In this document: positions 34,028-60,322 of the stretch, piece after piece
How positions within the stretch are numbered: the first letter of the stretch is position 1
How the letters are laid out: every line of letters starts with the position of its first letter
Made by a program: the position numbers and the translations under genes
IMG/VR virus record: IMGVR_UViG_3300032284_002843
Location: 1 to 64,000 of that record
DNA from: a virus
Reading direction: 5' to 3' (one strand)
DNA length: 64,000 bases
Notes under the pieces: generated by a model
The model's input: the letters and a program-made list of their open reading frames with translations, nothing else
Told to the model about the DNA's origin: nothing
The model's database searches: none

Positions 34028-34174
34028 TTATTCTCCTTTAAATTCTTTCTTAAACTTTTCAATTATCGCTTGTGCCTCAGTTGGACTTAAATTTCCAACA
34101 TCTATGTACCAAACCTTACGTTCAGGGATAACATCAGTTGTTTGGTTATCCAAATTAATATTTTGATCAGTCAT
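34028..34174 (-). CDS. 48-aa mini-protein resembling a T4 gp20 portal segment (not in ORF track)
   Basis: MTDQNINLDNQTTDVIPERKVWYIDVGNLSPTEAQAIIEKFKKEFKGE; GGGGG RBS; TTGCAT-N17-TAGAAT promoter (34193-34221). Confidence 0.65.
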   Translation of the reverse strand: MTDQNINLDNQTTDVIPERKVWYIDVGNLSPTEAQAIIEKFKKEFKGE

Positions 34175-56397: not shown

Positions 56398-59115
56398 ATG
56401 TATATTGATGCGTTTTTAGAAAGAGAAAAGAACACAATTTTAGTTGTTGAAAGAGATAAGAATGGCAAAAGAGCATTCAACAACTTTTCCACAAAATATG
56501 TTGTATATTGGCCAAGTCCCAGAGGCAAATATCCAAATATCTACGGTGAACTTTGTGAAAAATTTCAAACATCAAAAATAAAAGAGTTTCAACGTGAGGT
56601 AAATGTATTACCTAAGGTAAAACTACATGAAAGTGACATAAATCCAATTTTCCGTTGTCTATATGACAACTATAAAGGACTACCTGTTCCCAATTTGCAT
56701 GTGGCGTTCTTTGATATTGAAACTGACTTTGATCCGGCACGCGGCTTTTCAACACCCGATGACGCATTTAATCCTATCACAGCCATTTCGGTATATCTGA
56801 ATTGGCTTGATAGAAATTTTACATTGGTTATTAAACCAAAAGGCATGAGTGTAGAAGACGCACAAGCAATATGTGAAAAATTTGAAGATACTGTGCTTTG
56901 CAGTGACGAAAAAGAATTATTAGATATGTTCTTACGTCTCATTGAGGATGCAGACATAATGAGCGGGTGGAATTCAGAAGGGTTCGATATACCTTATATC
57001 CATAATCGTATCGTACAAATCCTAGGTAAAGAAGAAACTAGACGTCTATGTCTTTGGGGTAAGTTCCCTAAAAAACGTGAATATGAGGCATACGGAAGAT
57101 TAACTACAACTTACGATACAGTCGGAAGAATTCATCTAGACTATTTGCAACTTTATAGAAAGAATACATACCACGAAATGCATAGTTATAGACTTGATTT
57201 CGTAGGAGAATATGAAGTTGGTGAAAAGAAGGTTCCATATGAAGGCAGTCTAGATAGATTGTACAACAACGATTTTGCTAAATTCATTGAATATAATAGA
57301 CAAGACGTTATGCTGCTTGTTAAGATTGACAGAAAGAATAAATTCATTGAACTAGCTAACAATCTAGCACATGAAAACTGTGTGTTGCTGCAAACTACCA
57401 TGGGCGCAGTGGCTCTTATTGACCAAGCGATTGTAAACGAAGCACACGATCTGGGATTTGTTGTACCAAACAGACAACGAACCGATGATAACCGCGATGA
57501 TGAAGAAAATAAACATTCAAACAGCGTTGTTGGTGCTTATGTGGCAGATCCCAAAGAAGGTGTGCATAAATGGATAGGTGGCGTTGATATTAACAGTCTA
57601 TATCCAAGTTGTATTCGTGCACTCAACATGAGTCCAGAAACAGTAGTTGGACATATTCGTCCAGAGCATACTGAAAAGCTTATAGAAAAACGCATCAAGC
57701 TTGAAAAGAAAAGCTTTGCAGATGCATGGAATGCACAGTTCGGAACACTAGAATATTCGCAGGTAATGAATCAAGACATAACTCCTGTGACTATAGATTT
57801 TGAAGATGGTTCAGTCGTTACTGTAAGTGCCAGTGATGTTTATGATCTAGTCTTTAAATCTGGCAAGCCTTACATACTAAGTGCCAACGGTACTATCTTT
57901 ACTATGGAAAGAGATGGTATTATTCCACATTTGTTGTCCAGATGGTATGCTGAACGTAAGCAACTTCAAGCCGAAATGAAGAAATACAATGAACTTGCAG
58001 AAAATGCTCAAACAGAAGATGAAAAGAAAGAATATAAAAAGCAAGCTGCATTCTATGATCAAAGGCAGTTGATTAAAAAGATTCTTCTAAACAGCTTGTA
58101 CGGCGCCGTTGGTAATCCAGGAAGCAGATTCTTTGATCCACGTATTGCACAAAGCGTAACATTAAGCGGGCGCTGCATCGTCAAGCACATGCAAAGCAAG
58201 ATTAATGAAATTATAACAGGTGATTATAATCATCTTGGATTAGCTAATATATACGGCGATACAGACTCTGGTTATTTCTCGGCATATCCAGTAATGAAAG
58301 ATCAACCAGAGTTTTCTAATTTTGAGTGGACTAAAGAGAATGTTGTAGAGCTGTATGATCAAATAGGTAACCTAACTAATCAAAGCTTTCCTGAATTTAT
58401 GAGATCTGCATTTAATTGTCCAGAAAAGAATGGAGCTATTATTAGAGCAGCCAGAGAATTATGTGCATCAAGTGGGTTATTCATCACTAAGAAAAGGTAC
58501 GGCGTTCTTATCTATGACAAGGAAGGCAAGCGCAAAGACACCAATGGTAAAGCTGGTGAAATTAAGGCTATGGGTCTTGATCTCAAGAGATCAGATACTC
58601 CTAAAGTAGTGCAGGACTTTTTGAGTGAATTGCTAGTAGACGTATTAACGGAAAAGTCTGAAGATGAAATACAAAACAAAATCAAAGCATTTCGTAAAGA
58701 GTTCAGATCATGGCCAAGTTGGATTAAAGGATCACCAAAACGTGCTAATAAAATCACACATTTTGAAGGTTTAATGTCATCCACTCCGTCTGCTACTGTC
58801 CCAGGACATGTTAGAGCTAGTATTAACTGGAATAGTCTCAAAAAGATTTATAACGATCACTATTCTATGCCTATACAAGATGGATTTAAGGTAATTGTTT
58901 GCAAACTAAGACCTAATCCAACTGGCCTAACAAGTGTTGCTTATCCAGTTGATGAGCTTAATCTTCCAACATGGTTTAAAGAATTACCCTTTGATGACGA
59001 TGCTATGGAAGAAGCACTTATAGATAAAAAGGTCGGAAATCTACTTGGTGTGCTCAAGTGGGATCTTGACAAGAACAAAGATAACAACAGTTTTGATGAT
59101 TTATTCAAATTTTAG
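56398..59115 (+). CDS. Family B DNA polymerase
   Basis: FDIETD, GWNSEGFDIPY exonuclease motifs; DINSLYPS, KILLNSLYG, YGDTDS, KKRY. Confidence 0.97.
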   Translation: MYIDAFLEREKNTILVVERDKNGKRAFNNFSTKYVVYWPSPRGKYPNIYGELCEKFQTSKIKEFQREVNVLPKVKLHESDINPIFRCLYDNYKGLPVPNLHVAFFDIETDFDPARGFSTPDDAFNPITAISVYLNWLDRNFTLVIKPKGMSVEDAQAICEKFEDTVLCSDEKELLDMFLRLIEDADIMSGWNSEGFDIPYIHNRIVQILGKEETRRLCLWGKFPKKREYEAYGRLTTTYDTVGRIHLDYLQLYRKNTYHEMHSYRLDFVGEYEVGEKKVPYEGSLDRLYNNDFAKFIEYNRQDVMLLVKIDRKNKFIELANNLAHENCVLLQTTMGAVALIDQAIVNEAHDLGFVVPNRQRTDDNRDDEENKHSNSVVGAYVADPKEGVHKWIGGVDINSLYPSCIRALNMSPETVVGHIRPEHTEKLIEKRIKLEKKSFADAWNAQFGTLEYSQVMNQDITPVTIDFEDGSVVTVSASDVYDLVFKSGKPYILSANGTIFTMERDGIIPHLLSRWYAERKQLQAEMKKYNELAENAQTEDEKKEYKKQAAFYDQRQLIKKILLNSLYGAVGNPGSRFFDPRIAQSVTLSGRCIVKHMQSKINEIITGDYNHLGLANIYGDTDSGYFSAYPVMKDQPEFSNFEWTKENVVELYDQIGNLTNQSFPEFMRSAFNCPEKNGAIIRAARELCASSGLFITKKRYGVLIYDKEGKRKDTNGKAGEIKAMGLDLKRSDTPKVVQDFLSELLVDVLTEKSEDEIQNKIKAFRKEFRSWPSWIKGSPKRANKITHFEGLMSSTPSATVPGHVRASINWNSLKKIYNDHYSMPIQDGFKVIVCKLRPNPTGLTSVAYPVDELNLPTWFKELPFDDDAMEEALIDKKVGNLLGVLKWDLDKNKDNNSFDDLFKF

Positions 59116-59126
59116 GAGGAAAAATA

Positions 59127-59327
59127 ATGGCATTAAAGACTAGCGCATATTCACCAGAAGAATTAAAGATTCTTGTTGACGCACTCAACAGTGCCCCGGC
59201 ATATTTGTCTAAGCGGTTTATTTTAAAGAATCTATGCGGTTGGAGCGATGAAATGATCGCATCAAATGTTAGGATGAAAAATGAAGAATTGAACATGATG
59301 CAACAAGGAGATAAGGTATGGCGATAA
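59127..59327 (+). CDS. 66-aa mini-protein resembling the C-terminal part of T4-like portal proteins
   Basis: AGGAGG RBS; YLSKRFILKNLCGWSDEMI...KNEE. Confidence 0.65.
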   Translation: MALKTSAYSPEELKILVDALNSAPAYLSKRFILKNLCGWSDEMIASNVRMKNEELNMMQQGDKVWR

Positions 59328-60061
59328 AAGACAATTTTAAAGACTTGACTACATATGTAGCAAGTACTGGGTTTTTTGATAAAATAAAGATTACTTCCAG
59401 CAGCAAAGAGACTCTAATAGAGTCTATGGACAAAGGCAAGGAAGTTATCCTCAAGGGGCAATTTAACAAGCCAATAGATGACTTAGAAGGAGAATTTGGT
59501 CTAAGCAACCTATCTTTGTTGCAGACCATAACAAACGACCCAGAATTTCAAGCTAAAGAAAGCACAATGACTGTTGTCTATGAAAACAAAGCCGAAGGTA
59601 AGGTTCCAACTGAACTGGCTTATGAAAATAAGAGCCACAGCCATATTAACTATAGATTTATGGCCAAACAACTGGTACCTGATCAGCCAAAGTTTAATGA
59701 ACCCAAGTGGGATGTAGTAATTGCTCCGAGTAAGAGCAATGTTCAGCAGTTTACCTGGGCAGCAAATGGTCTAGCTGCATATGAACAGTATTTTATTCCT
59801 CGCATAGTAGATGGCACTCTTAAGTTCTTTATTGGTGAAGACAGCGCTAGCACTCAACGCGGCGGTGTAGTATTTTCTACAGATAGAACAGAGAAATTTG
59901 ACGGTGATCATAAGTGGAAAATTCAATTGGTGCAATCTGTGCTAAAGATTGGAGATAGCTGTGATTGCGAAATGAGTTTTAGTTCAAAAGGTGCTATTCA
60001 AATAAAACTTGATACAGGAATAGCCACTTACAAATATATATTTCCTGCAAAATTGCGCTAA
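59318..60061 (+). CDS. Putative sliding clamp (gp45-like)
   Basis: 247 aa next to polymerase; GEFGL.NL and Y.YIFPA patterns; largely positional inference. Confidence 0.6.
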   Translation: MAIKDNFKDLTTYVASTGFFDKIKITSSSKETLIESMDKGKEVILKGQFNKPIDDLEGEFGLSNLSLLQTITNDPEFQAKESTMTVVYENKAEGKVPTELAYENKSHSHINYRFMAKQLVPDQPKFNEPKWDVVIAPSKSNVQQFTWAANGLAAYEQYFIPRIVDGTLKFFIGEDSASTQRGGVVFSTDRTEKFDGDHKWKIQLVQSVLKIGDSCDCEMSFSSKGAIQIKLDTGIATYKYIFPAKLR

Positions 60062-60067
60062 TAGAAG

Positions 60068-60098
60068 AAACCCAGCTAAACAGCTGGGTTTATCTTTT
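60068..60098 (+). terminator. Intrinsic terminator
   Basis: aaacccagct-aaac-agctgggttt-atctttt. Confidence 0.75.
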
Positions 60099-60124: not shown

Positions 60125-60322
60125 ATGAGAAAAGATAGAAAAATAAAATTTTACCTTGGGGTAATTAAATCAACACTTATAAATGTAGCAAGTAAAAAGA
60201 CCTTTTGGATCTTTTTAATTACTATTCTAACCAGCTGTGGCTTAAATTTAGATGACGATTCATCTAATATCTTACAAGATATTGGACAAATCATTTTCAA
60301 AATACTGTCCAAAATAATGTGA
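60125..60322 (+). CDS. Small membrane protein
   Basis: One TM segment; TAAATA upstream. Confidence 0.5.
   Translation: MRKDRKIKFYLGVIKSTLINVASKKTFWIFLITILTSCGLNLDDDSSNILQDIGQIIFKILSKIM

Follow-up and report, generated by a model that had tools for sequence, protein, structure and literature searches.

A predicted stand-alone portal crown gene between the DNA polymerase and sliding-clamp genes of uncultured jumbo phages

Portal proteins are treated as single, indivisible components of the phage head, and the role of their crown is poorly defined even in T4, where gene 40, encoding a portal-assembly chaperone, lies among the replication genes. The crown, the innermost part of T4 gp20, is described as residues 451-524, folded into three helices (alpha10-12) with short turns, and as extending the portal channel inward, in the account given by PMC4493910. 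Packaged DNA pushes on the crown, which in full heads touches the tunnel loops (PMC12929629). In P22 and HCMV the region of the crown is ringed by scaffold proteins, as portrayed in PMC12005531, and the models presented in PMC12847820 place all four portal subdomains, crown included, in inter-subunit contacts. T4 packaging is itself coupled to replication and late transcription, via the terminase gp17, the late sigma factor gp55 and the clamp gp45, according to the description in PMC9026906. No published description of a stand-alone crown domain was found in the literature searched.

Here we describe a 66-aa gene, the mini-gene, in a window of 64,000 nucleotides (positions 1 to 64,000 of the virus record IMGVR_UViG_3300032284_002843). 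It encodes a known domain on its own, which is a new form, in genomic surroundings that are new as well. The mini-protein is homologous to the T4-type portal crown (gp20 451-524; the C-terminal end of PF07230), pairing with Pfam model positions 386-433, and resembles it in having three predicted helices with short turns and an acidic core. It differs in its location, a polymerase-clamp operon instead of the head module, and in an invariant Cys before G-W and its own N-terminal Y-x-P start. Clip, stem and wing are lacking and crown positions alone align, so that a protein of 66 aa cannot form a portal channel and a functional dodecameric portal was ruled out.

The mini-gene and its operon

The features of the locus, in window coordinates, are:

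56398..59115, + strand: family-B DNA polymerase, first gene of the unit (Pfam DNA_pol_B 8.8e-36, DNA_pol_B_exo1 5.4e-21)
59114..59119, + strand: AGGAGG ribosome-binding site of the mini-gene, read from the sequence, 7 nt 5' of the ATG
59127..59327, + strand: mini-gene, predicted free-standing paralogue of the portal crown domain, 66 aa, ATG start, TAA stop
about 59148-59291, + strand: crown core of the mini-gene, approximately residues 8-55
59307..59327, + strand: dual-use 3' end of the mini-gene, with the clamp GGAG ribosome site at 59307-59310 and the clamp start ATGGCG at 59318
59318..60061, + strand: PCNA-fold sliding clamp, 247 aa, phrog_12062 (no function named by PHROGs; PHROG match 7.8e-45)
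60068..60091, both strands: two-way terminator-like hairpin, perfect 10 bp with 5 G-C pairs, just 3' of the clamp stop

A preliminary description of this DNA had placed a 66-aa frame with an AGGAGG ribosome-binding site between a DNA polymerase and a clamp, and the frame, the residues quoted from it and the site were all found as described, with the polymerase confirmed by Pfam and the clamp by a fold search. The AGGAGG shares bases with the polymerase stop codon (TAG at 59113-59115). The clamp gave no Pfam match and no PDB match by sequence; its AlphaFold model (pLDDT 88.8, pTM 0.87) matched yeast and human PCNA in Foldseek (E 4.5e-11, probability 1.00, TMq 0.69), and on this fold match the clamp label is correct. 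The clamp homologue of phage PA5oct (gp170, L034 4004-4750, 33% identity) is annotated 'structural protein, ESI-MS/MS', that is, its record reports detection in virion proteomics.

The mini-gene stop and the clamp start overlap by 10 nt in the window (ATGGCGATAA), and a 10-nt overlap of the form ATGGCGNTAA or GTGGCGNTAA was present in 18 of 26 related loci besides. The clamp GGAG site sits in the mini-gene codons for G61 and the next residue, and the presence of clamp signals within the last codons explains the invariance of G61 and the full or near invariance of W65 and R66. Across the 26 loci the mini-gene either overlapped the clamp gene or was separated from it by 0-78 nt, never more, whereas its distance from the polymerase gene varied from about 10 nt to about 2 kb. 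Since basal members have separate genes 0-78 nt apart, the coupling to the clamp has tightened within the clade, and in most of its members the mini-gene would be translationally coupled to the clamp.

The hairpin at 60068-60091 is the likely end of a polymerase/mini-gene/clamp transcription unit; together with the gene linkage, its position after the clamp stop makes it probable that the three genes form one such unit. Other terminator-like sites on the + strand within the unit (57816, 57880 and 58939) were all inside the polymerase gene. Downstream of the hairpin lies a 65-aa frame (60125-60322) with a hydrophobic middle segment. From the position of the mini-gene in this operon we infer pre-late expression. 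Matches to the T4-type late promoter TATAAATA were uninformative on this point, with 11 seen against 8.0 expected in the window and none from 52496 to its end.

The polymerase gene varied among the loci, being matched in 2-4 separated pieces in L007, L009, L010, L014, L016-L020, L022-L024, L028-L031 and L034 (PA5oct). The split matches suggest inserted elements; in L034 a Hef-like homing endonuclease gene is annotated between two polymerase halves. In the window the polymerase C-terminus (59092-59112) reads ..SFDDLFKF, a tail which we take to resemble the C-terminal clamp-binding peptide of T4-type polymerases, and the polymerase of locus L059 ends ..SFDSLFSF.

A search of a 5.8-billion-protein collection gave 72 candidates, among them 71 small homologues of the mini-protein (61-93 aa, 54-100% identity). 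The family alignment A1, made from 32 of these, has 21 invariant columns centred on Y-L-S-K-R-F ... L-C-G-W. Over 23 coding sequences of the mini-gene, mean pN was 0.31 against a pS of 0.78, and median dN/dS was 0.23 (33 of 253 pairs, those unsaturated at synonymous sites), with 0.12 for the neighbouring clamp gene (12 of 231 pairs). These values point to strong purifying selection, similar to that on the clamp, and the 66-aa frame is a real and constrained gene. The preliminary description had likewise taken it for an independent gene and not debris, and the conservation and dN/dS check bore this out. A reading as non-functional debris or a chance frame could appeal to the small size of the frame and to nothing else, and was refuted by the 71 homologues, by pN lying far below pS, by the AGGAGG site and by a position kept in 49 of 51 loci; we give it virtually no credence.

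Three family members (P0014, P0037 and P0046) are named sigma-24 family or ITPase family protein by one source. These names look wrong and appear to stem from chance-level matches: when the 32 members were scanned against Pfam, Sigma70_r4_2 appeared in one (E 0.18) and Ham1p_like in nine (best E 0.071). About 70 unnamed or misnamed small proteins can be labelled portal crown-like on the basis of this family.

Homology to the portal crown

The likeness of the mini-protein to portals was seen with several methods of differing power. In tblastn of the single mini-protein against 50,697 phage records, only weak matches were returned (E 0.1-9), yet in 15 of the 17 matched records they lay within the portal gene and at corresponding C-terminal sites. 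The portals in question were those of Atu_ph07, the PA5oct group, SCTP-2 and RsoM2USA; the other two records were Pectobacterium phages at E 9. Scanned one by one against Pfam, the 32 aligned members matched Portal_T4 (PF07230) more often than any other family (11/32, best E 0.0027). A family HMM scored 22-27 bits on five of five portals, always at the C-terminal crown, and hhalign of the family against an alignment of these five portals gave a probability of 96.9% (E 1.8e-10), pairing mini-protein residues 19-56 with residues 479-518 of the portal of the complete relative G001. The portal likeness that had been proposed from the letters of one sequence is thus significant at profile level, and the T4 gp20 C-terminal stretch cited in its support is found letter for letter where a relative's portal is aligned to PDB 3ja7.

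The least biased test of homology came from searching whole genomes in six frames with the family profile. Run on the four largest related records, it found exactly two places in each, the second being a full Portal_T4 protein in all four:

G001, 452.8 kb, complete: second match in a 596-aa frame (listed portal ORF 590 aa), E 5.5e-7
G006, 518.6 kb, with terminal repeats: second match in a 611-aa frame, E 4.6e-9
G007, 309.8 kb: second match in a 595-aa frame, E 3.3e-10
G008, 328.6 kb: second match in a 595-aa frame, E 3.5e-10

The same search of the smaller fragments G009 and G010 found the mini-gene and no second match. Full-length portals (590-611 aa) with their own crown thus coexist with the mini-gene in G001, G006, G007 and G008, which rejects a split portal and agrees with the earlier claim of an independent gene. 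Among 60 candidates none was a fused or longer version of the mini-protein, which is weak evidence. Further Portal_T4 matches in G006-G010 scored 11-12 bits and were treated as chance; one of them lies in a gene judged by inspection to be GTP cyclohydrolase I (FolE)-like and the other in an unrelated 131-aa frame. The portals of cultured relatives adjoin prohead protease genes. The window's own record (136 kb, 32% complete) contains no full portal, and only two isolated pieces of it match the G001 portal, namely the mini-gene and a 48-aa frame at 34028-34174.

Of 21 proteins found at E <= 0.001 in a search of 1.84 billion representative proteins, 16 were small family members, four were C-terminal portal pieces of 99-135 aa (E 2.4e-4 to 1e-3) and one, the repetitive 1388-aa protein P0084, was a false positive. 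In a language-model atlas the mini-protein adjoins clusters of 64-70-aa proteins tagged SPP1_portal or Portal_T4 (scores 0.95-0.96). A PDB sequence search with the family profile returned chance rows only (E 0.62 and 1.1). A joint alignment of portals with the mini-gene family, about 50 columns long, has the common pattern Y-[LIM]-S-K-R-F ... L-x-G-W-[ST]-[DE] ... N ... E-E. The core of the mini-protein has a net charge of +0 to -5 (-1 to -3 in 12 of 15 mini-protein rows), and portal crowns one of -2 to -5. The portals of the clade itself scored 28-38 bits against the family profile, and outgroup portals 22-27 bits. Taken together, these comparisons show true homology between the mini-protein and the portal C-terminus; the mini-gene is a complete crown domain and nothing else. 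The conserved residues common to the mini-protein and portal crowns could reflect fold stability alone. The clade's portals (L032 1279-3051, - strand, and the C-terminus of the G001 portal) carry, after the crown, an acidic low-complexity tail with much Gly, Pro and Ala, about 70 residues long; T4 gp20 lacks such a tail.

An AlphaFold model of the mini-protein (pLDDT 71, moderate confidence) has helices at residues 10-22, 29-35 and 41-65. When this model was aligned without a prefilter to 48,161 solved chains, the best match was T4 gp20 residues 454-515, at a Z of only 4.8 and an rmsd of 3.9 over 60 residues; seven of the top 50 entries were portals, five of them aligned contiguously in the C-terminal region. 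Foldseek returned nothing at E <= 0.001 from the PDB, where T4 portal chains had TMq 0.52-0.57, or from BFVD, where the low-rmsd rows were again portals. Low Z values are as expected for a helical protein of 66 residues and, with no Foldseek match at E <= 0.001, the structural comparison supports the sequence evidence and does not carry it. The top Foldseek row, SigD region 4 (3vfz_B), had an E of only 2.4 and a TMq of 0.31; a sigma-70 region 4 (helix-turn-helix) domain was rejected, the mini-protein resembling it in its small three-helix shape and having an acidic core. The net acidic core, like that of portal crowns, also makes a basic DNA-binding protein unlikely and favours the retention of crown-type protein contacts.

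Distribution and origin

In each of the 26 loci that a search with the mini-gene had turned up, the polymerase comes first, then the mini-gene, then the clamp. As these loci had been picked via the mini-gene itself, its presence was counted only on a set found by scanning for the clamp first, where 49 of 51 loci, or 49 of the 50 informative ones, had the mini-gene immediately before the clamp (L085 is without upstream DNA and so uninformative). The remaining locus, L059 (2442-2501), has the polymerase stop followed 58 nt on by the clamp start, with no mini-gene. In the clamp tree L059 is nested inside the gene-carrying clade with branch support of 98/97, which makes the absence there a secondary loss. 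The L059 clamp has a branch of 0.55 against a median of 0.098, and branches just as long lead to three clamps whose loci retain the mini-gene.

The mini-gene was absent from four cultured relatives with the polymerase-then-clamp order (PA5oct, Vibrio phage 2.275.O, Atu_ph07 and Phosso); in Phosso, an unrelated 93-aa frame occupies its position. These absences and the loss in L059 indicate that the mini-gene is not indispensable. It arose once, in the ancestor of a clade of uncultured jumbo phages, and is most simply explained by a single partial duplication in which a copy of the 3' end of the portal gene of this clade was inserted before the clamp gene. As judged from the loci and alignments above, the gene is near-universal, syntenic and slowly evolving across this family-level clade of giant phages.

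Possible roles of a free crown domain

We suggest that a partial duplication of the 3' end of the portal gene in the clade ancestor gave rise to a stand-alone crown gene, and that the duplicate came to lie between the DNA polymerase gene and the clamp gene, where it was kept and co-transcribed with both. With the same polar/hydrophobic motif and net acidic charge as portal crowns, the paralogue has most likely kept crown-type protein contacts, and it may act as a crown mimic on the usual partners of the crown: neighbouring portal subunits, the portal wing/tunnel loop, or scaffold/core proteins. As a product of the replication operon it would be present ahead of the late portal or together with it, and would affect the onset or the timing of packaging or of portal and prohead assembly. 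A stand-alone crown paralogue acting as a crown mimic in head assembly or packaging is, as a whole, the explanation that we favour, with moderate confidence; the mimicry mechanism taken by itself is tentative, and we would sooner expect it to fail than to hold. If the proposal is right in outline, a family-level clade of giant phages keeps a separate soluble crown domain under selection and wired to the replication operon, and the mini-protein would offer a natural way into the question of which partners the crown binds. What it might bring to light is a regulator of portal/prohead initiation, a connection of replication with packaging, or a mimic directed at host sensors.

That the mini-gene belongs to a replication operon and is tied to the clamp while its polymerase distance varies points at the clamp, not the portal, and the main rival to the crown mimic is a clamp partner, in which the duplicated three-helix module was recruited to the PCNA-like clamp, in replication or clamp-dependent late transcription, and has no portal role; it might be an adaptor or regulator in the peptide pocket of the clamp. 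This would fit a gene lying directly upstream of the clamp, with the clamp's ribosome-binding site and start embedded in its last codons (18/26 loci and the window), although start/stop overlaps are common between unrelated neighbouring genes of phages. The most conserved segment of the family, R-F-[IV]-L-[KR], also fits APIM, a motif for PCNA/beta-clamp binding given as [KR][FWY][LIVA][LIVA][KR] in the description of PMC7261172. Like the APIM peptides of ALKBH2 and ZRANB3, the segment fits the consensus in 64 of 71 close members; just 0.9% of shuffled family sequences fit it, and frames of the window have one match in 20,113 residues. Strict APIM is kept, however, in only 3 of 16 divergent family representatives and not in the other 13, and unlike those peptides the segment sits in a folded helix common to portals: its R-F-x-[LM] core occurs in portal crowns too, where clamp binding is unexpected, and its hydrophobic residues are probably in the core of the helix bundle. 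The mini-protein also lacks a PIP-like C-terminal tail such as that of the polymerase, and the four cultured relatives run the same clamp without it, as L059 does after its loss. We consider a clamp partner a serious but doubtful possibility. In a combined form, the free crown domain would be a stoichiometric clamp partner that also recognises the portal or prohead, so that clamp-loaded replicating DNA is handed to, or gates, head assembly or packaging. T4 gp17-gp55-gp45 is a precedent for a physical link between packaging and clamp, made there through terminase and gp55, not a portal fragment; here a portal-derived domain would be co-translated with the clamp, and no homology of the mini-protein to gp55 or gp33 was found. 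Such a portal-derived adaptor would, if real, couple replication to packaging in giant phages, but we think it very unlikely.

The mini-protein might instead be a virion component, with free crown copies stacked on the portal crown inside the head so that the channel becomes longer, in the way of the P22 barrel or of the additional internal density in T4. Contacts of the crown-crown type would be possible, and PMC4493910 describes, above the T4 crown, an internal extension that it leaves unassigned; the location in the replication operon and not beside the portal, and the cultured relatives lacking the gene, make this a far-fetched reading. The preliminary description had proposed that the mini-gene and a second portal piece are independent genes forming a deliberate set of structural-protein decoys. 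The second piece is:

34028..34174, - strand: 48-aa portal-like frame, at the portal stem/clip boundary by T4 numbering (Pfam Portal_T4 positions 204-234, 23.6 bits)

Both pieces do match the portal, the second with 53% identity to residues 286-315 of the G001 portal, but the 48-aa frame, searched against 5.8 billion proteins, matched no small protein except itself, and in the complete genome G001 it matched the portal only, with no stand-alone copy. As an orphan it is not co-conserved with 59127-59327, so the two do not make up a conserved set, and a deliberate set of decoys is not supported. A decoy role for the mini-gene, in which a portal fragment produced early titrates or blinds a host immune sensor for the portal, can call on the existence of portal-sensing immunity (EcAvs4 and SpbK, as presented in PMC12847820, and RAZR, as presented in PMC13017515), on an operon expected to be expressed before the late genes and on the second portal-like frame, at the stem/clip boundary, in the same genome. 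The portal sensors with a known binding site that are described in PMC12847820 bind at the clip, stem or wing and not at the crown, and the literature searched yielded no paper that connects a sensor with the crown. With 49 of 50 informative loci, a fixed position and strong purifying selection, the mini-gene also behaves as a core gene, unlike accessory counter-defence genes, and its supposed companion is an orphan. The evidence leans against a decoy function, which we regard as unlikely. As a separate observation, the stem/clip boundary to which the 48-aa frame corresponds is the part of the portal bound by EcAvs4 and SpbK in the account of PMC12847820.
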